Origin: Myxococcota bacterium
GTDB lineage: Bacteria > Myxococcota_A > UBA9160 > UBA4427
Assembly (NCBI GenBank): GCA_965250285.1
Contig: OZ252299.1
Span: 5,856,001 to 5,920,000, forward strand
Direction: 5' to 3'
DNA length: 64,000 bases
Shown: one piece after another, positions 5,685-17,092 of the stretch
Position numbering within the stretch: the stretch's first letter is position 1
How the letters are laid out: each line of letters starts with the position of its first letter
Made by a program: the position numbers and the translations under genes
Notes under the pieces: generated by a model
Told to the model about the DNA's origin: nothing
Seen by the model: the letters and a program-made list of their open reading frames with translations, nothing else
The model's database searches: none

Positions 5685-6557
5685 ATGACGACCGAGGCTC
5701 CGAGTCAGAAGATGTGTGCGTGCAGCGGTGTGCGCTGGTGCGCCGCGTGCCGGGCGCCCGACCGCCGTGCCCACTGGGGCCTACGCGAGCCCGTCGCCGA
5801 GCCCGACTTTCTGCGCGACCGCGCCGTGGCGCCCGGGCGCCGCGCAGACGGCAGCCGCATCCACCTGTTCGACGTGGCGTCGCAGCGCGTCCCGGGGCTC
5901 GAAGGGTTCTCGGGTCTGATGGTCTGGCCCGACTTCGTGAGTGAGGTCGAGGCCGAGGCGCTGCTCGCCGACATCGACGCGCGTCCCTTCCAACCGGCGC
6001 AGAGCGGCAAGGCGAAGCAGCACTTCGGCCCGCGCATGAACTTTCGAAAGCGGCGCATGAACGCGTCGCGTTTCGATGGGCTGCCTCGGTATGCGCGCGC
6101 GCTCGAGGCGCGGGTGCGCCAGCGGCTCGATCCCGCCGCGGCCCCGGCCGGTCTCGTCGAAGCGCTGAATGAGTTCGAGACGACCGACGCGTTCGTCCTG
6201 CGCTACGAGGCCGCTCAGGCGTCGAACCTCGACCCCCATGTCGACGACACGTGGGCCTACGGCGAGCTGATCCTCGCTCTCTCGCTCGAGCGGGACGGCT
6301 GGCTGACTTTTCTCGACGCCGACCCCCAAAATGGTGTCGAACGCCCCTTCGAGTGTGTTCGCGCTCACCTTCCAGCCCGCTCGATGGCGCTGCTCTACGG
6401 CCGTGCGCGGTACGATTGGTTCCACGGCATTCGTGCCCTCGACGTCGTGGGCCGGCGCACCAGCATCACGCTCAGGACGCTTGGCTCATCGCTCCGTTCG
6501 ACCGATGAGGGGAGGGCCGTGCGAGCGCGCGCCGAGCAACAGCTCGCGCCTGTGTGA
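5685..6557 (+). CDS. AlkB-family 2OG/Fe(II) dioxygenase, ALKBH4-like
   Basis: HVD...H...RTSITLR catalytic set; N-terminal CxCxxxxxCxxC; QSGKAKQHFGPRMNFRK block. Confidence 0.85.
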   Translation: MTTEAPSQKMCACSGVRWCAACRAPDRRAHWGLREPVAEPDFLRDRAVAPGRRADGSRIHLFDVASQRVPGLEGFSGLMVWPDFVSEVEAEALLADIDARPFQPAQSGKAKQHFGPRMNFRKRRMNASRFDGLPRYARALEARVRQRLDPAAAPAGLVEALNEFETTDAFVLRYEAAQASNLDPHVDDTWAYGELILALSLERDGWLTFLDADPQNGVERPFECVRAHLPARSMALLYGRARYDWFHGIRALDVVGRRTSITLRTLGSSLRSTDEGRAVRARAEQQLAPV

Positions 6558-6613
6558 CGCTTTCGCGTGACGCGCGCCGATGCGAGGAATCTCAGTCGTC
6601 CGGGGGTGGAGCG

Positions 6614-7909
6614 GTGAAGCGCCAGCGGAACGCAGAGGGTCGAGCGAGCGGGGCACGCATCGGTGTGCGCGCACTGGCGGTCGGAGCCGTCCTCGTCACC
6701 GCGGCCGCTTCGACGGCCCAGGACGCGCCCGGTTCGGCCACTTCGCTGGTGCCTGCTTCACGTCCCCTCGTTGCGGCGCCGACGACGTCGCTCGCGCCCC
6801 GGCCGAACGACCGCGATGCGTTGGTGCGCGACGCGCTGCTGCTCGATTTTGCCGGCTACCACACCGGCGCGGCCGACGTGGTGCGACGGCTCCGCGCGCA
6901 GCGCCCGGGCGATCCTCTCGTCGCGTTGATCGAGGTCGAGCATCGCTTCTGGCTCCAGCTCTACGACGTGGGCCCCGTGCGCGACGACCCCGAGCTCGTT
7001 CGTGCGATCGAGCGCGCGCGGGATCTCGCCAAGGCGAATGCCGAGGCCCATCCCGATGACATCGAGGCCCAGGCGCTCTACGGGCGGGCACTCCTTCACG
7101 ATGCGCGCCGACTGGCCCTCGACGGGTATCTGATGAAAGCCGGCAGTCAGAGCGAGAAGGCGCGTGGCGTGCTCGAGGCGGTCGTTCGTGACGCGCCGAG
7201 AGACCACGACTCGCGATATCTGCTGGGCAACTACTACTACTGGGCCGGCGTCCTGCCCGCTTATCTCAAGTACATCAACTGGCTCTGGTTCGTGCCCCAG
7301 GGCGACAAGCACGAGGGGCTCGTGATGCTCCGTGAGGTCAGCACGAGCGCGAGCCCCTATGCCGAGAGCGCGCAAGTGATGCTGTCGGTCATCGACAGCC
7401 ACCACACGCCGACCGCATTCGAGGCCGCGGCCGACCGCTTGGCCATGCTGGCCGATCGCTACCCCAAGAACGTGCTCGTGCTGCATGAGCTCGTCGATGT
7501 CACGTTCAAGCTCGGCCGCTACGACGAGCTCGATGCGCTGCTCGATCGCATGGCTTCGCGCGCCGACGAGCCGCAGCCCGTGCGCGCCTATGCACTCGTG
7601 GCTGAGATGTGGCGGGCCCGCGCAGCGCTCCATCAGCGCCACGTCGACGAGGCCGAACGTCGCCTCGATGCGCTCATGCTGAACCAGGACGAGCTGCCGA
7701 ACTGGACACTCGCGTGGGTCGACGTGATGCGGGGCCAGATCGCCGATCTACGAGGTCGACGCGACGAGGCGAAGCGGCACTACGAACAGGCGACGAAGCG
7801 CAAGGGGCTCTACGAGAGCCAGCGCGCGACGCGCATGGCCGAGTCGGGTCTCGACGCGCCCTTCGATCCGGATGCGTTCGAGCCGCCGCTGCTCGTCACG
7901 GGCGACTAG
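6614..7909 (+). CDS. Exported TPR-like alpha-helical protein
   Basis: Signal-like N-terminus ending ASTAQD, helical repeats with TPR-like patterns (SRYLLGNYYY, RRDEAKRHYEQA); start uncertain (6554 or 6614). Confidence 0.6.
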   Translation: MKRQRNAEGRASGARIGVRALAVGAVLVTAAASTAQDAPGSATSLVPASRPLVAAPTTSLAPRPNDRDALVRDALLLDFAGYHTGAADVVRRLRAQRPGDPLVALIEVEHRFWLQLYDVGPVRDDPELVRAIERARDLAKANAEAHPDDIEAQALYGRALLHDARRLALDGYLMKAGSQSEKARGVLEAVVRDAPRDHDSRYLLGNYYYWAGVLPAYLKYINWLWFVPQGDKHEGLVMLREVSTSASPYAESAQVMLSVIDSHHTPTAFEAAADRLAMLADRYPKNVLVLHELVDVTFKLGRYDELDALLDRMASRADEPQPVRAYALVAEMWRARAALHQRHVDEAERRLDALMLNQDELPNWTLAWVDVMRGQIADLRGRRDEAKRHYEQATKRKGLYESQRATRMAESGLDAPFDPDAFEPPLLVTGD

Positions 7910-7984: not shown

Positions 7985-8596
7985 CTACGCGGCGCCCGGC
8001 GCCGACGTCATCTTCTTCTGCTCTCGCCGCATGTCGGCGTCTTCGTACAGCTTGTGCACGACGTCGAGCGCGACGAGCAGCCGCGCGTACAGGCGAATCT
8101 TCACGCTCTCGAGGCACGCGTAGGCCATCAGCGCGAAGATGCTCGAGGTCAGGGCGACCGCGAGGGCGCCGAGCTCGAGCGACGTGCTGCCGAAGTGCAT
8201 CGACAGGAAGAGGATCAGCATGCCGCCGGTCGTCCCGATGAAGCCGATCGGCGGCAGCAGGCCCGCGACCATCGTGATCGGTGTCGCGTAGTGCGTCTCG
8301 TACTCGTTCATCACGTACTGGCGCGTGGCGTCGTAGATGAAGTCGCTCGGATGGCCGTGCGCCTCGTTCTCGCGCAGGGCCTTCTGCAGCGTGCGCATCA
8401 GCAGACCCGCCAGGGGCTCGACGCGCGCACCGGTGCCTGCAGCCTTCGCCAGCTCGGCCTTGTTGAGGCAGCGGGTGGCCTGCCACGCCTGCAAGCAGGT
8501 CTTGAGCCCCTTCATGAAGGGCACCCAGACCGCGACCAGCGCGGCCAGGGAGACCACCCAGGTCATCATCGCATCGCCCGAGAGCAGCTCGCTCAC
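7985..8596 (-). CDS. MotA/TolQ/ExbB-family proton channel subunit
   Basis: Three hydrophobic segments; LLPPIGFIGTTGGM matches the PxxGxxGTxxGM motif; ALAVALTSS in the last TM; SD AAGGAG. Confidence 0.85.
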   Translation of the reverse strand: MSELLSGDAMMTWVVSLAALVAVWVPFMKGLKTCLQAWQATRCLNKAELAKAAGTGARVEPLAGLLMRTLQKALRENEAHGHPSDFIYDATRQYVMNEYETHYATPITMVAGLLPPIGFIGTTGGMLILFLSMHFGSTSLELGALAVALTSSIFALMAYACLESVKIRLYARLLVALDVVHKLYEDADMRREQKKMTSAPGAA

Positions 8597-8630
8597 GTCG
8601 TCTCCTTCGTCACCCCGAGCCGTGACCGGC

Positions 8631-9149
8631 TCAGCCGTTCCACTTGCGGTTCTTCAGCTTCTCGATGGCTTCGGTGATCGTGTTCTGCTCGCCGAGCGGA
8701 TAGTCGACCAGCATCTGGCCGCGCCCCTCGTAGCGCGCACGAATGTCGTCGAGCACGCGCTGCACGTCGCGCGTGCGGCGCAGCTGGATCAGCAGCTCGC
8801 CCTTCATGAAGCGCAGGTTGGCGTCGGTCGCGGCGACTTCGGGGTGGTCGCTCGTCCACTCGGGCTTGGTGAGCGCGTCGAGGTGCTGCCCGATGTAGCC
8901 GAGCACGAACGGCTCCATCGCGTCGATGCCGCGATCGTCGCGCCGCTCGAGCAGGCTCGTGAGCGTCCGATTCATCGCGCTCAGATCGCCGAGCGCGCGA
9001 TCGAGATCCTGCTTGCGCTGGCTGAGCGCCTCGCCGCCGAGCGGAGCCTCGTTGGCGCGATCGCTCCCGCCTTCGTTCGCCGCCAGCGGCAGGGCGACCC
9101 ACAGGGTCGCGATCACCAGCGCACCGATCGAGAGAAGTCGTCGTCGCAT
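8631..9149 (-). CDS. Exported hypothetical protein with coiled-coil
   Basis: Signal peptide MRRRLLSIGALVIATLWVALPLAA, SD AAGGAG, GC-rich third codon positions, tight operon spacing. Confidence 0.75.
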   Translation of the reverse strand: MRRRLLSIGALVIATLWVALPLAANEGGSDRANEAPLGGEALSQRKQDLDRALGDLSAMNRTLTSLLERRDDRGIDAMEPFVLGYIGQHLDALTKPEWTSDHPEVAATDANLRFMKGELLIQLRRTRDVQRVLDDIRARYEGRGQMLVDYPLGEQNTITEAIEKLKNRKWNG

Positions 9150-9172
9150 GTTCGTCTCCTTCAGGCCGCCGT

Positions 9173-11206
9173 TCACGATCGCGTCTCGTAGTAGAGGCGG
9201 CGGAGCAGGGTGTGCACCGCGTGCCCGCGCTGGGCGCGCAGGTCGTCGATGAGCCCCTCGGTGCCGAGGGTGGCCTCGTAGAGGGGCAGGGCGCGCTGGC
9301 GCGCCGCCATCTGCTTCTGCAGTCGGCCGAGCAGCTGCTTGGCCTCGTCGAGCTGTCGCTCGCGCTCGGCGCGTTCGACCACGCTCATGCGCTCGCCCGG
9401 CGCCGCCGGGCCGGCGCTGCCGGCGCCCGAGAGCGTCATCACGCGGCCTTCGACCTCGCTGATGCGACCGGCGAGGGTCTGCACGCTCTCTTCGAGCTCG
9501 TCCATGCCCGCGGTGTCGGCGAACCCGAGGTACATCACCACGAGCTCGTCCGAGAGCGCGTCGCGGAAGATGCGGACAGTCTGATTGCCCGGCTCACCCG
9601 CCTCGATCCAGCTCGCCACGTAGCGCGAGCGCGCGACGCCGTCGGCGATCGGGCGGGCCCGGGGCAGGTACTCGTTGGATCGACCCTGCCGCTCGAGCGC
9701 CGTCGTGAGTGCGGCCCAGAGTGAGCGGTCGAAGGGGAAGGTCTTGAGCGCGTCGCTGTAGCGGCGCACCGCGTGCTCAATCTCGGTGGGGTTCGGGTTG
9801 ATGCCCGGGTACGCGACGAACGCGTCGCCGTAGCCCCGCGCCGCCTCGTACGCCGCGAAGTACGCCGAGTCGGGCACGTGCTCGGCGCCCTCTTCGTTGC
9901 CGAAGCGGTCGAAGAAGCCGAGGTAGCGCGAGTACATGCGCGCTGCGTTCCGGATGTGATCGTCGGCGAGGGCCGGCGACGACTGCGACCGGGTCAGGTA
10001 GTAGTCGGCGGCGTTCAGGCTCGCCTCCTGGATCTCCTCCCAGAGCAGACGCAGCGCCGCGTTGTAGGCCTCGCGGCCCGCGGTCGCGAAGCCGCTGCGC
10101 TGGAAGCGCTCGCCCGAGTTCGAGGCCTGCAGGTCGGCGTAGACCTGCATCGCGCCCTCGATGCTGAAGGGCGTCTCGACGTGCGGGTCGACGCCGAGTC
10201 GCTGCTTCGCCGCGTAGATTTCGCCCATCTGACGAAGCACGCGCACGTAGACGGCGGCCTCGCCGCCGTGGGTCTGGGCCAGGCCGAGCGCCGTCTCGTA
10301 GGCGCCCGACGCGACGCCCATCGCCTTGACGGTGGCGTCGCTGAGCCCCTCGTCGGCGAGCAGGCCGCGCGCCGTGTCGTGGTACTTGCCGGCTTCGAAG
10401 AGCACGAGCGTGAAGGTCAGGCTGCCGCCGTCGCTCTCGGTGCCGTCGAGGCGCTGGATGATGCGCTCGAGGTAGGGCAGCGCGCTGGCCTCGCGCGGAA
10501 TCACGTCGGGGTGGGCACCGACGCGACCATCGGCCAGCATGCGCACGACCGTGCCGAGGGGATCGAGGTCGCGGTTGAGACCCATCTCCTGGCTCCGGAT
10601 CAGGATCATGCGCGACATGTTCTCGAAGACGTAGGGCAGCGCTGCGACGAAGCCCGAGCGCGACGACTGCGAGAGCGAGAGCGCCTGCAGCGTGTCGTAG
10701 GGGCTCTCGAGCGGCACGACGACGTCGAGCCAGAGCCCGAGCACCTCGTTGGTGAAGTCGCTCGCGTTGCCCTTCTCGAGCGCACGGTGCGCGTTGATGT
10801 AGTGCGACCAGTACTGGTTCTCGTGGCGTCCCGTCTGGTCGGCGAGGGGCGCGATCGCCTCGACGGCGTGCTCGAGCGCCTTGGGCTCGCGCTCGCCGAG
10901 GTATCGCAGCAGGTACGCGATCGCGACGCGGCGACGCGTGTCGTCGTCGAGATCATCGAGCGAGAGGCGACCCGCCTGGGTCTGCACGCTGATGTACTCG
11001 GGCAGGGTCATGCCCGCTTCGTTCGCGTACTGCTCGATGCGCGCAGACAGCGTGTTCGCGTCGGCCGACGAGTACACGTACGCGTAGTCGAGGTAGCCGT
11101 CCCAGATCGAAGTGTCGGGGCCCGCGGCGAGCGCCGGCGCAGCCGCGCAGAGAAGCGCGATTGCGAACGCGCACGTTCGGGTCCATCGAGTGAGGCTCTT
11201 CATCAT
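9173..11206 (-). CDS. Large exported all-helical hypothetical protein (about 677 aa)
   Basis: Signal peptide ending APALA, protein-like composition, TPR-like stretch and C-terminal coiled-coil; no family recognised. Confidence 0.8.
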   Translation of the reverse strand: MMKSLTRWTRTCAFAIALLCAAAPALAAGPDTSIWDGYLDYAYVYSSADANTLSARIEQYANEAGMTLPEYISVQTQAGRLSLDDLDDDTRRRVAIAYLLRYLGEREPKALEHAVEAIAPLADQTGRHENQYWSHYINAHRALEKGNASDFTNEVLGLWLDVVVPLESPYDTLQALSLSQSSRSGFVAALPYVFENMSRMILIRSQEMGLNRDLDPLGTVVRMLADGRVGAHPDVIPREASALPYLERIIQRLDGTESDGGSLTFTLVLFEAGKYHDTARGLLADEGLSDATVKAMGVASGAYETALGLAQTHGGEAAVYVRVLRQMGEIYAAKQRLGVDPHVETPFSIEGAMQVYADLQASNSGERFQRSGFATAGREAYNAALRLLWEEIQEASLNAADYYLTRSQSSPALADDHIRNAARMYSRYLGFFDRFGNEEGAEHVPDSAYFAAYEAARGYGDAFVAYPGINPNPTEIEHAVRRYSDALKTFPFDRSLWAALTTALERQGRSNEYLPRARPIADGVARSRYVASWIEAGEPGNQTVRIFRDALSDELVVMYLGFADTAGMDELEESVQTLAGRISEVEGRVMTLSGAGSAGPAAPGERMSVVERAERERQLDEAKQLLGRLQKQMAARQRALPLYEATLGTEGLIDDLRAQRGHAVHTLLRRLYYETRS

Positions 11207-11257
11207 GTCGGTCGGGCTCCCTTCATCCCGCTCGATTCGGTCGAGGCGCACGGGCCA

Positions 11258-12661
11258 TCACCGGCTGCCCGAGAGGCACGCCAGTGCGAGCTGCAGCTCG
11301 TCGCACCGATCCCCCACCGCGCGACCCGGGGCCTGCTCGACCTGCATCAGGAAAGAGTTCAGGTTTCGGGTCTCGAGAAATCGGTAGGTGCCGGCGCGAC
11401 TTACACACTGCTCTTGCGTCGTAACGGCCGCGATCACCTGCTGCTTGAGCGAATCCTCTCGGCGGTCCGATGCGCAGGCGGCGAGTGCGGCGAGCGGCAC
11501 ACCCGCCACCCCGGCCGAGGTCGATGTGCTGCGGCCGCCGGCGGGGACGGCGCGGCGCGTCGTCGTGCGGCCCGCGCTCGTCGAAGCCGGTGTGCGGGCG
11601 GCGGCGCCCGGGGCAGCCAGACCGGCGACCTGCGGCCGCGGGCTCGTCGAAGCCGTCTGGGCGGCCGGAGCGCCTCGCCGCGAGGTGCGCGAGGGCGCCG
11701 TGGCCGTCTGGGCGCCGGGGACGCTGGCGATGCCGGGGACATCCATGCGCGGCTCGTTTCGCCGCGCGGGCGCGGCCGGTGCCGGGGCGGTCGAGCGGCC
11801 GCGCCGGGTCGGTGCGGCGTCGGCGGCGGGGGCCGCGCCGAGGCCGGCGAGGGCCGGCGTGGCGACGGGGGCGGCCGATCGCGACTGCGCGGCCTCGAAC
11901 CGGGGGGCCCGGGCCGTGCGGCTGGGGGCGGCCTGCGGCTGGGAGCCGGGCGAGATCGAGGCGACGGGCGCGAGGTCGGGGCGGTTCTGGGCCGCCGCCG
12001 CCTCGGGGCGATTGCGCGCGTTGCGGCGGGCACGCTGGGGTGCCGCTTGCTCGGCGAGCGCCATGCGATCCATCTGCACGTTCGGCGCCGGGGCCACCGG
12101 CGCCGGCGCGGTCGGGGTGCGGCGTCGCGCGCGTTCGGCTGGCGCGGTCTCGGCGGCGAGTTGGGGCGACGGCACGGGCATGACCGGCTTCGGCTTCGGT
12201 CGCGTGCGCGGCTTCGGGGTCGGCTTCGCCGCCGGGGGCGGCGGCGTCGGTTTCTGGGCAACGGCCTGCGGCGGCGGCGGGGGCGGCGCGGGCTTGGCCG
12301 GCGCCGGGGGCGGCGGCTTCACCGCTTCGGCGACGATGGGTTCGGGCTCGGGGGCCGGGATCTCGGGGAGGGGCGGCGGCGGGGGCTCGTTCGTGAACGT
12401 CGCGACCACCACGCCCGAGTCGTCGGCGTGATCGCTCAGCACGGTCACCATGAACGTGATCGTCACCGTGAGAACGAGCACGATGGCGGGCAGCACGGCG
12501 ACGCTGCGTCGGAGGCTCTGGCCCTGGGCGTGGAGATCGGCGCGCAGCCATGCGAAATCGCGCCCGAAGTCGGGCTTCGGCGGATGCGGATAGGGCGCGC
12601 CGCCGATCGGAACCGACGCGGCGCCCAGGCCGTAGTGAGACTTCACGCGATGGGCGCCCAA
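11258..12661 (-). CDS. TonB/TolA-like protein: single TM, long Pro/Ala linker, Cys-containing C-terminal domain
   Basis: TM VAVLPAIVLVLTVTITFMVTVL, EPPPPPLPEIPAPEPEP and KPTPKPRTRPKPKP linker, globular tail of about 80 aa; start uncertain (TTG 12661 with GGGAG, or GTG 12646). Confidence 0.7.
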   Translation of the reverse strand: MGAHRVKSHYGLGAASVPIGGAPYPHPPKPDFGRDFAWLRADLHAQGQSLRRSVAVLPAIVLVLTVTITFMVTVLSDHADDSGVVVATFTNEPPPPPLPEIPAPEPEPIVAEAVKPPPPAPAKPAPPPPPPQAVAQKPTPPPPAAKPTPKPRTRPKPKPVMPVPSPQLAAETAPAERARRRTPTAPAPVAPAPNVQMDRMALAEQAAPQRARRNARNRPEAAAAQNRPDLAPVASISPGSQPQAAPSRTARAPRFEAAQSRSAAPVATPALAGLGAAPAADAAPTRRGRSTAPAPAAPARRNEPRMDVPGIASVPGAQTATAPSRTSRRGAPAAQTASTSPRPQVAGLAAPGAAARTPASTSAGRTTTRRAVPAGGRSTSTSAGVAGVPLAALAACASDRREDSLKQQVIAAVTTQEQCVSRAGTYRFLETRNLNSFLMQVEQAPGRAVGDRCDELQLALACLSGSR

Positions 12662-12663
12662 GG

Positions 12664-13137
12664 TCAGACTCCCGCGAGCGATCCGAGATCGCGCGACACC
12701 GTCGCGCGCCGTCGACCCGGCCAACGCGTTTCGATCTCGGCTGCGGCGTCGAGCATGTCCTGGCTGCGCGAGTCTTCGTGCGGTGCGAGCAGCGGGCGCT
12801 CCGCGCCCTCGCCAGCGAGCTGCCCCAGGCGAGCGCGCAACCCGTCGACATCCTCGTACACGTCGGTGACTGGAGCGGCGCCGCCCACGAGGGTCACCTC
12901 GAACACGCCCCCTTCGGCGTCACGCGGGTGCACGCGCACCTGCCACGCCTTCGCGGCGGTCGACGGCATCGACTCGGTCGCCTCGGCGCCGATGCGGGGC
13001 ACCATCATCTCGCCGAGGTCGGGGGCCTCGGCGCCCGAATCTGCGGCCATCTGTGTGGCGGCGATCAACATCAAGAAGGCGAGGTCGACGAAGGAGAAGA
13101 GCCACGCGGGCGCTCCGTGTCGGTTCTGACTCATCAT
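12664..13137 (-). CDS. ExbD/TolR-like subunit with MotB-like TM motif
   Basis: [16 protein letters not shown] (intramembrane Asp); periplasmic [14 protein letters not shown] resembling the ExbD LxAD motif. Confidence 0.75.
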
Positions 13138-13267: not shown

Positions 13268-13354
13268 GGCGTCGTGATCGCGGCTCGTTTCGATCGCACG
13301 CGAGCATTCGAGCCCGGCGAGAACCGTCGCTCGGGTCTGCGGTACCCTCGTCGT

Positions 13355-14875
13355 GTGCCGAGCCCCAACCAGGTGATCATCTTCGGAGCGAGCGGCGACC
13401 TCACACGGCGCAAGCTGGTGCCCGCGCTCGCTCGGCTCTTCGCCGACCGCGCCGGGCCCGAGTCGCTGCAGGTCATCGGCGTCTCGCGTAGCGATCTCGG
13501 CGATGGCGGCTTTCGCGAGCGGCTGGCCCACGCGATCTCGCCCGAGCACGTGGGCGCGTTCGACGCCCTGGCGCCGCACGTCTACTACCACCGCGGAGAC
13601 GCGGCCGACCCGGCCTCGATGCAGTCCCTCGCGGCGCGACTCGACGAGCTCGCGGGCGGCGAGCCCACCGGTCGCATCTTCTATCTCTCGCTCAAGCCCG
13701 AGCTCTTCGCGCCCACCGTCGCGGGTCTCGCGGGGCAGGGCATGCTGACGGCCGCCCCCCACGAGCAGACGGCGTGGCGGCGCGTCGTCATCGAGAAGCC
13801 CTTCGGCCACGACCACGATTCGGCGGCGAAGCTCAACCAGGAGCTGCTCGAGCACCTGCGCGAAGACCAGATCTATCGGATCGACCACTACCTCGGGAAG
13901 GAGACCGTGCAGAACCTGCTCGGCTTCCGTTTCCACAACGCGATCTTCGAGCCGCTCTGGAACCGCCACCACGTCGAGTGCGTGCAGATCACGGCGGCCG
14001 AGACCGTCGGCGTCGAGGACGGTCGCGGCGCCTACTACGACGGCACCGGAGCGCTGCGCGACATGCTGCAGAACCATCTGCTGCAGATCCTCGCGCTGGT
14101 CACGATGGAGCCGCCGTCGAGCCTCGACGCCGAGGCGATCCGCAATCACAAGCTCGAGGTGCTGCGCGGCCTGCGGCACCCCGATGCGCATGCCGTGCGC
14201 CACTCGACGCTGCGCGCTCAGTACGTGCGCGGCGAGGTCGAGGGTCGCCAGGTCATCGGCTACCTCGAGGAGAAGGGCGTCGACCCGCAGAGCCAGACCG
14301 AGACCTACGTCGCGGCGCGGGCCTACATCGACAACTGGCGATGGAGCGGCGTGCCGTTCTTCATTCGTCACGGCAAGCGGCTCGCCCAGCGCTTCACCGA
14401 GGTGAAGGTGCAGTTTCGCACGCCGCCGCTCCAGCTCTTCAATCGTCCTGAAGAGATGAGCGAAGACGAGTACCGCCGTCTGCTGCGCGACGGTGCGCTC
14501 GTTCACGCGCGGCCGAACGTGCTCACATTGCGACTTCAGCCGCGCGAGGCGATCGAGATCTCGTTCGGCGTGAAGGAGCCCGGCCCTGCGATGGCGATGG
14601 CCCCGGCGAGCCTCGAGTTCGACTACCGCGAGCGCTTTGGCCGCGCCTCGCCCGATGCCTACGAGCGGCTGTTGCTCGACGCGCTGCAGGGCGATCAGAC
14701 GCTCTTCTTGCGCGGCGACGAGATTCAGGCGTGCTGGCACTACGCCGATCAGGTGCTCGCGGCGTGGCGCGGGCCCGAGGCGCCCCCGATGCTCGAGTAC
14801 GCCGCCGGCAGCTGGGGGCCCGCCCGCGCCAACGAGCTCTTCGGCGACGTTCAGGCGAGCTGGTCGCGTGGCTGA
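13355..14875 (+). CDS. zwf: Glucose-6-phosphate 1-dehydrogenase
   Basis: [44 protein letters not shown]. Confidence 0.97.
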
Positions 14876-15554
14876 GAGCGCACGCTTCGTCCGCAGTGAC
14901 GAGCCGATGGTCGCCGCCGGCGATCGGCTGGCCGAAGCCCTGCGCGATGTGATGAGTGAGTCGGAGCTCGTGCGACTCGCGATCCCGGGTGGCTCGGCGC
15001 TCGAAGCCCTCTCGACGGCGCGGGCGGCGCTGGGTGCGGAGTTCGAGCGCGTCGATCTCACGTGGGTGGATGAGCGCTGCGTGCCAATCGACGACGCCGA
15101 CTCGAACCGGGGCGCGGCCGAGCGACGGGGCCTGCTCGGGCCCGACCATCCACCGCGGCGCAGCGTGCCGCTCTACGTCGACGGCGAATCGCCCGGCGAC
15201 GCCGTCGCTCGCACCCGGGACGAGCTGCGCGCCGTCTTCGACTCGGGGCTCGACGTCGTGCTGCTCGGGCTCGGTGAAGATGGTCACGTGGCCTCGCTGT
15301 TCCCGGGCCGTTTCGATCGCGACGACGACGCCACGGTGCTGCACGTGACCGACTCGCCGAAGCCGCCCGCCGATCGCATCAGCCTCGGCTGGCGCATGCT
15401 GGCCACGGCGCGCAGCTGCATCGTCGCGGCGGCGGGTGAATCGAAACGTGAGGCGCTGGGTCGGGTGCTCGGGCACGACGCGACGCTCCCCGCCGTGGGG
15501 CTGCACGGCCTGACGGTCATCTCGGACATCGGGGTCGAAGCCGGGGCCGCCTGA
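14868..15554 (+). CDS. pgl: 6-phosphogluconolactonase
   Basis: [40 protein letters not shown]; overlaps the zwf stop. Confidence 0.9.
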
Positions 15555-15676
15555 CTGTTTGCGGGGTGCGCGCCAGTGCAGATGGCGACCGCGTCGGAGC
15601 GCAACGATGAAGAAGCGACGACGAATGAAGCTGAAAGACAGAAGCGATCAGCGACGAGACGAGAAGGGAGCGAGCG

Positions 15677-17092
15677 GTGAGTGAAGCCACGGCGCAGGTC
15701 GGGGTCCTGGGCCTCGGCGTCATGGGGGCGAATCTGGCGCGCAATTTCGCGAGCCGCGGGCATCGCGTCGCCGTCTACAACCGCACGACCGCGAAAGCCG
15801 AGCGCCTCGTTGCCGAGCACCCCGAGGCCGGCTTCACGCTCACCGAAACGCCCGAAGCCTTCGTCGCGGCGCTCGCCCGACCGCGCCGCATCGTCTTGAT
15901 GGTGCCCGCCGGTCCCTCGGTCGATGCCATGCTCGACGCGCTCTCGCCGCTGCTCGACGAAGGCGACGTCGTGATCGACGGCGGCAACAGCCTCTACACC
16001 GATACCGAGCGCCGCTCGGAACGCGCCGCGGGTGAGCCGTGGCTCTTCATCGGGATGGGGGTCTCGGGCGGGAGCGAGGGCGCGCTGCTCGGCCCTTCGA
16101 TCATGCCCGGTGGTGACCGCGAGGCTTGGGAGACCCTCAGGCCGCTGCTCGAATCGATCGCCGCGGTCAGTGATTCGGGGCCGTGCGTCACCTACTGCGG
16201 CCGCGGCTCGGCCGGCCACTTCGTGAAGATGGTCCACAACGGCATCGAGTACGGCGACATGCAGCTGATCGCCGAGACCGCGGTGCTGCTGCGACAGGGG
16301 CTCGGTCTGAGCGATGCCGAGACGGCCGACGTATTCGATACGTGGAATCAAGGCGAGCTCGAGAGCTACCTGATCGACATCACGGCCGACATCTTCACCG
16401 CGCGTGATCCCGACAACCCGGACGAACTGCTCGTCGACCAGGTGCTCGACCGAGCCGGCCAGAAGGGCACGGGACGCTGGACCGTCGAATCGGCCCTTCA
16501 CCTCGGCGTGGCGCTCCCCACCGTGGCGGCCGCCCTCGACGCGCGCAACATGAGCGCGGGCCTCGATCGCCGGCGGGCCGCGGCCGACGTGCTCGAGCTC
16601 GGTGCCGCCCGACCGCTCGAGGGCGTGAGCGTCGACGACCTGCGCGACGCGCTCTTCGCGTCGAAGATCGCGAGCTACACCCAGGGCTTCGACCTGCTCG
16701 CGCGGGCCAGCGAGGAGCGTGACTACGGCACCGACCTGGCCGAGGTCGCGCGCATCTGGAAGGCCGGATGCATCATTCGTGCGCGCTTTCTCGACCGCGT
16801 GCGCGCGGCCTTCGACGGCGACGCGCCCGAGCTGCTCGCGCTCACGCCCGACTTCGCACGTGACCTACGCGAGCGCGCCCCGGCCTGGCGCCGCGTCGTG
16901 GCCGGAGCCGTGCAGGCGGGGATCCCCGTGCCTGGTCTGTCGACCTCGCTCGCCTGGCTCGACACGCTGGCGACCGCTCGAGGCAGCGCGAACCTGATTC
17001 AGGCGCAGCGCGATTACTTCGGTAGCCATACGTACGAGCGCGTCGATGCGCCCGGCGAATTCGTGCACACCGACTGGCCGCGTCGCGGCTAG
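15677..17092 (+). CDS. gnd: NADP-dependent 6-phosphogluconate dehydrogenase
   Basis: GLGVMGANLARN, GVSGG, KMVHNGIEYGDMQ, QKGTG, QAQRDYFGSHTYER. Confidence 0.97.
   Translation: MSEATAQVGVLGLGVMGANLARNFASRGHRVAVYNRTTAKAERLVAEHPEAGFTLTETPEAFVAALARPRRIVLMVPAGPSVDAMLDALSPLLDEGDVVIDGGNSLYTDTERRSERAAGEPWLFIGMGVSGGSEGALLGPSIMPGGDREAWETLRPLLESIAAVSDSGPCVTYCGRGSAGHFVKMVHNGIEYGDMQLIAETAVLLRQGLGLSDAETADVFDTWNQGELESYLIDITADIFTARDPDNPDELLVDQVLDRAGQKGTGRWTVESALHLGVALPTVAAALDARNMSAGLDRRRAAADVLELGAARPLEGVSVDDLRDALFASKIASYTQGFDLLARASEERDYGTDLAEVARIWKAGCIIRARFLDRVRAAFDGDAPELLALTPDFARDLRERAPAWRRVVAGAVQAGIPVPGLSTSLAWLDTLATARGSANLIQAQRDYFGSHTYERVDAPGEFVHTDWPRRG

Follow-up and report, generated by a model that had tools for sequence, protein, structure and literature searches.

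A conserved five-gene operon of Myxococcota for a probable ion motor with an undescribed output and a possible link to a cytochrome and flavinylation cluster

What work is done by an ion-driven motor whose operon contains none of the outputs of the known motor systems? The question is raised by five genes, here called g1 to g5, which run on the reverse strand from position 13137 to 7985 of a 64,000-nucleotide stretch of a Myxococcota bacterium (the window; positions 5,856,001-5,920,000 of G000, a 6.25-Mb genome in a single contig). We hold with high confidence that the operon encodes a conserved motor-transducer that operates in the manner of Ton, Tol or the Agl-Glt core, with an output that has not been described before. 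The chances seem to us about even that it serves a cytochrome c/LamG/Tat and flavinylation cluster, for which it would be a non-homologous stand-in for the Agl-Glt core, as comparison of gene neighbourhoods suggests.

The initial annotation described five tightly packed co-oriented genes with Shine-Dalgarno sites, and the coordinates of the open reading frames (ORFs) agree: the gaps from g1 to g5 are 2, 51, 23 and 34 nt, and a GGAG, AGGAG or AGGGAG sequence precedes every start. The GC content at third codon positions is 0.85-0.95 in all five genes, a consensus scan revealed neither a sigma-70 promoter nor a terminator of the operon, and the operon has no plasmid match and no listed RNA holder. 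The operon is not a chance assemblage, since g3 is present in 92 of the 225 genomes of the class UBA9160 and the full g1-g2-g3-g4-g5 set stands in the window's order in 49 of 60 loci fetched for their long flanks. The other 11 comprise six loci ended by a contig edge, three with g2-g3-g4 alone and two with g3-g4 alone. These lone g3-g4 pairs, without rod or motor (L050 of G117 and L080 of G128), are extra copies in genomes that hold g1 and g5 elsewhere, and they suggest that g3 and g4 are perhaps the tightest pair of the operon. Profiles of g5 and g3 match 32 and 33 of 401 genomes of the phylum, every one in the same class, and the homologues carry the labels Myxococcota or Deltaproteobacteria. 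A distant clade was found by profile search, with Desulfobacteraceae, Desulfuromonadales and Deltaproteobacteria metagenome-assembled genomes (MAGs) as its named members: in 24 of 38 Desulfobacterota-type metagenome loci all five families occur in the rotated order g4-g5-g1-g2-g3, the remaining 14 being partial, mostly by contig ends, and one of them a g3 fragment alone. The proposed neighbourhood survey thus finds the five genes together across the class and, rotated, in a second phylum. No published description of the operon, or of a link between the cluster and a motor, was found in the literature searched (subscription journals and supplements lay outside its scope). One genus carries the operon twice, the second copy (L074-L083, L085, L087, L088) being longer and lying next to glyoxalase, diadenylate cyclase and MMPL genes; in G152, G161, G162 and G167 about 40-47 kb of one contig separate this copy from the Glt-core operon.

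As judged from their sequences, g5 and g1 are members of the MotA/TolQ/ExbB-MotB/TolR/ExbD ion-motor superfamily. The product of g5 (8596-7985; 203 aa), a predicted pentamer subunit with three transmembrane (TM) segments, yields the sole near-threshold family match in the operon, to PF01618 MotA_ExbB (22.7 bits against a cut-off of 22.9), and is nearest to TolQ (HH probability 57%, E 1e-4; against MotA, HH E 0.28). Having three hydrophobic segments, it is unlike the four-TM A subunit of flagellar MotAB or PomAB. The G-x-x-G-T and A-L-x-x-T helices that mark the pentamer subunit of the superfamily are recognizable in it. Its T122 is found in 78 of 86 sequences (Asn in eight) and Ser or Thr occupies position 152 in all 86; mapped, like g1, against the E. 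coli K-12 proteins, T122 and S152 correspond to ExbB T148 and T181, and the position of ExbB E176 is taken by V147, with no acidic residue there. The dimer subunit g1 (13137-12664; 157 aa) is of the ExbD/MotB type with a small periplasmic domain and, again unlike flagellar motors, gives no OmpA match. In the window it has no Pfam match and matches the N-terminal model of MotS weakly (E 0.065), and 11 of 50 homologues weakly match ExbD PF02472 (best E 0.0014). W12, F16 and D18 are invariant in its TM helix (residues 9-27); D18, kept in 91 of 91 sequences, aligns with ExbD D25, and the W12-x5-D18 spacing equals that of W26-D32 in E. coli MotB. Because of the weak ExbD matches among homologues and the MotB-type spacing, the label of ExbD/MotB hybrid given to g1 at first reading is a fair one. 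The claim of a proton motor stands in part: D18, T122 and S152 support an ion motor of this family, but these conserved residues are compatible with Na+ as well as H+ and do not single out the proton.

The force would be taken up by g2 (12661-11258; 467 aa; TTG start, with an alternative GTG at 12646), a TonB/TolA-shaped protein with 16% Pro. The Pro-rich single-TM rod foreseen in the initial annotation is recognizable in its TM helix (residues 54-72; 12446..12502), a motor-box-like beta stretch (residues 84-90; 12392..12412), a Pro/Ala-rich rod 170-350 aa long among homologues, and a C-terminal domain of about 80 aa (11261..11503). The SHLS His, described in parts of PMC10666116 and PMC12204202 as the motor contact of the transducer, is absent: a His lies inside the predicted TM helix in 2 of 50 homologues. 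The motor box is presented as a hallmark of TolA and TonB in a section of PMC12204202, and a strand resembling it follows the TM helix in 47 of 50 g2 sequences against 74 of 920 control windows in a composition test. On the cytoplasmic side, a YGxG-type motif (residues 10-13; 12623..12634) is conserved in both clades and reads [YFH]-G-x-G in 82 of the 84 loci where g1 precedes g2. The C-terminal domain, which has four conserved Cys, is modelled as a helix, three strands and a helix (pLDDT 84). Fold searches gave no solved match (best Z 3.8), and TonB/TolA was not among the listed folds, which does not exclude that fold; no sequence match to the TonB or TolA C-terminal domain was found, 51 tails matched no NCBIfam model, that of AgmX/PglI included, and the domain did not align with TolA, TonB-type or GltG tails (GltG-like: HH E 0.76).

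The division of labour within the operon is indicated by lineages that have lost the motor. G145 (96% complete), G103 (99%) and G100 (89%) keep g2-g3-g4, and g1 and g5 are absent genome-wide; g5 is missing also from G097, G098 and G102 (71-90% complete). Wherever the rod start is visible in such motor-less genomes the YGxG start is absent from it (the anchors of G097 and G102 fall off-contig, and the rod of G100 reads across two frames). The G145 rod opens with an anchor that is a copy, at 54% identity, of the one in the GltG-like gene of that genome. An S/A-x3-H anchor opens the rods of G103, G098 and G100, and the SHLS-type His is present in swapped rods of this kind only. The G103 anchor shares 61% identity with a TonB/TolA-type gene that G103 has next to its ExbB and ExbD genes; for the counterparts of this gene in G100, G099 and G098 the figure is 44-51%. 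The full operon is retained in G099, a member of the same genus, and the two swap events nest in separate full-operon clades of a FastTree g3 tree of 48 sequences. Retention of g2-g3-g4 with a swapped anchor in lineages without g1 and g5 implies that the output is likely dependent on a motor and that one motor can be exchanged for another. It is likely that the rod anchor is the motor-specific part and that the g2 tail, g3 and g4 form an output unit needing some 5:2 motor. These natural swaps parallel the TolA/TonB domain exchanges made in the laboratory, as described in part of PMC10666116, and show motor-transducer modularity in evolution.

What the rod would act upon is encoded by g3 and g4. 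The first (11206-9173; 677 aa) is a periplasmic protein with a signal peptide, modelled as an all-helical solenoid resembling tetratricopeptide repeats (TPR) with a C-terminal coiled-coil hairpin (pLDDT 93). Fold searches returned generic TPR or helical-repeat matches only (TM-score <=0.21; best Z 12.4, to designed repeats), and so did the ESM Atlas. None of 28 g3 members matched a Glt model, and comparison with the GltC/D-like proteins of the genome itself gave E 0.1-0.4 (profile against single sequence), and with TolB E 0.83. The second (9149-8631; 172 aa) is helical with one TPR-like motif. Both had been taken for exported helical proteins, which is right for g3; g4 is normally a lipoprotein that has lost its Cys here. 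By regular expression, 55 of 57 and 18 of 20 homologues have a lipobox, none of them with Asp at +2, so that they are likely bound to the outer membrane, and the lipobox Cys is lost in G000 and its congener only. Comparison of g4 with Pal gave E 0.63, with the CpoB of G000 E 0.0018 (HH probability 15%) and with CpoB of E. coli E 0.11, and 2 of 79 g4 members matched TIGR02795 at E 0.12. The g2 C-terminal domain, g3 and g4 match no Pfam or NCBIfam model of Tol, Glt or Ton parts, in line with the initial annotation; nor was there a convincing alignment of any of them with the Tol, Ton or Agl-Glt-core-like proteins of G000, the best being that of g4 with CpoB. No peptidoglycan-binding domain was found in the operon proteins, and inter-chain mutual information over 79 paired rows (Meff 51) gave nothing above noise (top z about 4).

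The composition of the operon fits none of the related ion-driven motor systems compared, as had been surmised: key parts of each of Ton, Tol, Agl-Glt, MotAB and Zorya are missing, and the operon contains no TonB-dependent receptor, TolB, Pal, OmpA-like domain, flagellar gene or Zorya gene. The initial suggestion of a new trans-envelope machine is supported, with the qualification that the machine apparently works like a Ton, Tol or Agl motor-transducer and does not represent a new motor class. A precedent for a TonB-shaped rod with another C-terminal domain beside motor and TPR genes is given by the vWA force transducers presented in parts of PMC12204202; there, however, the rod terminates in a vWA fold and in many cases SHLS is retained, neither of which is found in g2. 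Neither Myxococcota nor Desulfobacterota turned up when the main text of that paper was searched. The 5:2 motor family thereby gains an undescribed output, consisting of a new rod tail, a TPR scaffold and a lipoprotein, and a His-free coupling motif.

The comparison with the Agl-Glt core (gltC, D, E, G and aglR, Q, S, as outlined by Luciano et al. 2011, PMC3169522) bears most directly on the proposed function. In both systems a single operon encodes a 5:2-type motor, a Pro-rich rod with one TM helix and TPR proteins that are exported; both can occupy the same slot beside the cytochrome cluster, and the rod anchor is exchangeable between them (G145). In contrast to the core, the five-gene operon has one ExbD-type gene (g1) rather than two (AglQ, AglS), a MotB-like TM motif in g1 and a cytoplasmic YGxG anchor in g2; its g3 and g4 are not detectably homologous to GltC/D/E-like proteins, and g2 has no AgmX/PglI tail, although the GltG-like protein of G000 passes the cut-off of that model. 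G000 encodes elsewhere a Tol locus (CpoB confirmed), two TonB2/Ttp-type systems and an Agl-Glt-core-like operon, the label of the last resting on architecture, a GltE match (E 1.6e-13) and the AgmX/PglI tail above cut-off, with GltC and GltD labels that are positional. This Agl-Glt-core-like operon is followed by a 5,012-aa ORF (6,195,569-6,220,130 of G000; L175 and beyond), and in G145 and G146, too, large ORFs of this sort start behind the GltG-like gene.

The pointer to the output comes from the genes that recur beside the operon. In 61 loci, a monohaem CxxCH protein with weak DUF1585/1588 matches was found 22 times, a LamG and CxxCH lipoprotein-like protein 21 times and a Tat-type protein of the family c8 19 times; DUF3570, DUF4266, TlpA, ApbE and DsbD were found 8-12 times each. 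G000 has these genes in one cluster (5,216,109-5,230,449; L173), composed of an outer-membrane protein (OMP) barrel, a SPOR-tailed GspD-like secretin that is separate from the main type II secretion region, ApbE, DUF3570, DUF4266, TlpA, DsbD, and the monohaem, LamG-cytochrome and Tat proteins. The cluster is previously undescribed; DUF3570 itself is reported to be flavinylated by ApbE, its function being left uncertain in the part of PMC8238504 concerned. The monohaem, LamG-cytochrome and Tat proteins recur in Gamma- and other Proteobacteria and in an Oligoflexia MAG. Over the 225 class genomes g3 and c8 occur together in 80, g3 only in 12, c8 only in 11 and neither in 122 (phi 0.79), and the association is concordant within five families, whereas a control pairing of g3 with a Glt-core gene, whose search gives a lower bound, yielded 48/44/18/115 (phi 0.42). 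The 80 genomes with both genes include 49 in which they lie within 20 kb on one contig, one in which they are far apart and 30 in which they are on different contigs.

A parallel association involves the Agl-Glt core. In the order to which a genome labelled Pseudomonadales belongs, c8 is present in 34 of 151 genomes, and a GltD-like gene accompanies it in 33 of these 34, compared with 9 of 46 sampled c8-negative genomes. Among 18 c8 loci of this order, picked for contig span, g1, g3, g4 and g5 are found in none, and nine have a Glt-core-like motor no more than 20 kb from c8. In five of the 18 this motor begins on the same strand as c8 and 2.3-2.5 kb past its start, which is the slot that g1-g5 fill in 10 of 60 class loci. 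Five cluster-bearing genomes outside the class gave no g3 in a search that had no positive control, their completeness being unknown. Since the cluster is accompanied elsewhere by the Agl-Glt core instead, the five-gene set probably does the job of that core. In Gammaproteobacteria the core is a complex whose function is unknown, according to a passage of PMC3169522, and the shared slot makes its role in non-gliding bacteria directly testable in culturable Gammaproteobacteria.

A possible mechanism can be outlined. Ions would pass D18 of g1 inside the Thr/Ser ring of g5 and turn the dimer, rotation and a 5:2 stoichiometry being expected from the family. The anchor swaps suggest that g2 docks on the motor by the YGxG motif, the TM helix and the motor box rather than by an SHLS His, and its Pro/Ala rod of 170-350 aa would transmit force through the periplasm. 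Judging by which genes stay together, the g2 C-terminal domain may engage g3, and g3 may engage g4; the gene association suggests that the resulting pull may serve to assemble, position or gate the redox proteins that the linked cluster contributes to the outer envelope. A wider reading, which we put forward tentatively and think somewhat less probable than not, is that the redox apparatus itself (monohaem cytochrome, LamG-cytochrome lipoprotein, Tat protein and flavinylated DUF3570) needs ion-motor work, supplied by the Agl-Glt core in Pseudomonadales and here by an unrelated five-gene machine, re-plugged by anchor swaps. If true, the original task of the gliding-motor core would be identified, and an electron-transfer system would be seen to depend on force for its assembly or gating.

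Several observations weigh against service to the cluster. Eleven class genomes have c8 but neither g3 nor a detected Glt-core gene, some of them 94-97% complete (G048, G072, G186, G188), and twelve have g3 without c8. In G000 the operon is 636 kb from the cluster, a Glt-core-like operon is present as well, and the lipid-bearing Cys of g4 is lost. No cytochrome cluster occurs near the Desulfobacterota-type loci in flanks of up to 8 kb, where the recurrent neighbours are the Prc protease (8 of 38), Memo/GltX genes, an OMP barrel (4) and MltG (2). The 30 of 80 genomes with the two genes on different contigs are too fragmented for linkage to be judged, the linkage may reflect hitch-hiking on one transferred island, and the functional evidence is all genomic association among related genomes that are not independent, for which reason Fisher P values are overstated.

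Some of these observations would be expected if the operon were a second envelope-upkeep machine of the Tol kind, in which the rod pulls g3 in the role of TolB and thereby moves or releases g4 in the role of Pal or CpoB, for outer-membrane or wall remodelling, the cluster being a mere fellow traveller. The Desulfobacterota clade has a Tol-like gene order and cast, its module occurs with no cluster nearby, and its loci adjoin Prc and MltG; in addition, g5 is closest to TolQ, the layout of motor, rod, periplasmic partner and lipoprotein is that of TolQ-TolR-TolA-TolB-Pal-CpoB, and g4 faintly resembles CpoB. Nevertheless, the operon has no SHLS His, TolA-type C-terminal domain, beta-propeller, OmpA-fold Pal or equivalent of TolQ E173, and, as noted, no peptidoglycan-binding domain was detected; G000 already has a separate and complete Tol locus, the operon is patchy in the class, and upkeep of this kind gives no reason to expect the link between cluster and motor that is seen in parallel in Pseudomonadales. 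We regard it as rather unlikely.

It seems to us unlikely outright that the operon is an importer or exporter of the Ton kind, in which g3 and g4 would be adaptors to a channel in the outer membrane whose gene lies elsewhere and which the machine would open (an orphan receptor, the OMP barrel or the SPOR-tailed GspD secretin). Such a role would agree with the replacement of the native anchor by a TonB/TolA-type one, with the presence in flanks of about 8 kb of the secretin at 21 of 61 loci and of the OMP barrel at 11, and with the channel Asp, the Thr ring, the Pro-rich rod and the motor box that the operon shares with ExbB-ExbD-TonB and TonB2/Ttp. The g2 C-terminal domain, however, is not alignable with any of the TolA, TonB-type and GltG tails, SHLS is missing, the operon has TPR and lipoprotein partners of its own, and no TonB-dependent receptor was found in it or among the annotated recurrent neighbour clusters. 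The secretin was rejected as a dedicated partner, its SPOR-tail profile matching 171 of the 225 genomes, many of them without g3 (weak matches may be other SPOR proteins), and no secretin stands beside the Desulfobacterota-type loci.

Of the three outputs initially suggested, surface motility, export and envelope remodelling, motility is the least supported, and a motor of the Agl-Glt gliding kind is very improbable despite the same cast of motor, rod, TPR protein and lipoprotein, an anchor exchangeable with that of a GltG-like rod and a Myxococcota host. The operon did not turn up outside its own class among the 401 genomes searched; barrels, an adhesin and cytoplasmic FHA-type parts are lacking, and in part of PMC3169522 the core alone is argued to be unlikely to drive motility. 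A Zorya-like phage-sensing motor is hardly credible: the MotB-like W-x5-D helix and a weak ZorA match of one Desulfobacterota g5 (E 0.006) are outweighed by a PADLOC run on the five window proteins without a Zor match, the absence of a ZorA tail, a ZorB OmpA domain and ZorC/D/E effectors from the operon and its neighbours, the lack of recurring defence genes nearby, and stable, apparently vertical inheritance.

Some other features of the surroundings may be added. Downstream of the operon, a convergent gene for an exported TPR protein of 451 aa (window 6554-7909) is kept beside it in the congener only. The divergent zwf-pgl-gnd-like pentose-phosphate genes upstream (window 13346-17092; zwf confirmed by search, pgl and gnd labels read from sequence) are not conserved neighbours. 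Elsewhere in G000, at 1,801,921-1,804,682, a further divergent MotA/ExbB-family gene is accompanied by a MotB-like partner and by a third gene of unknown nature.

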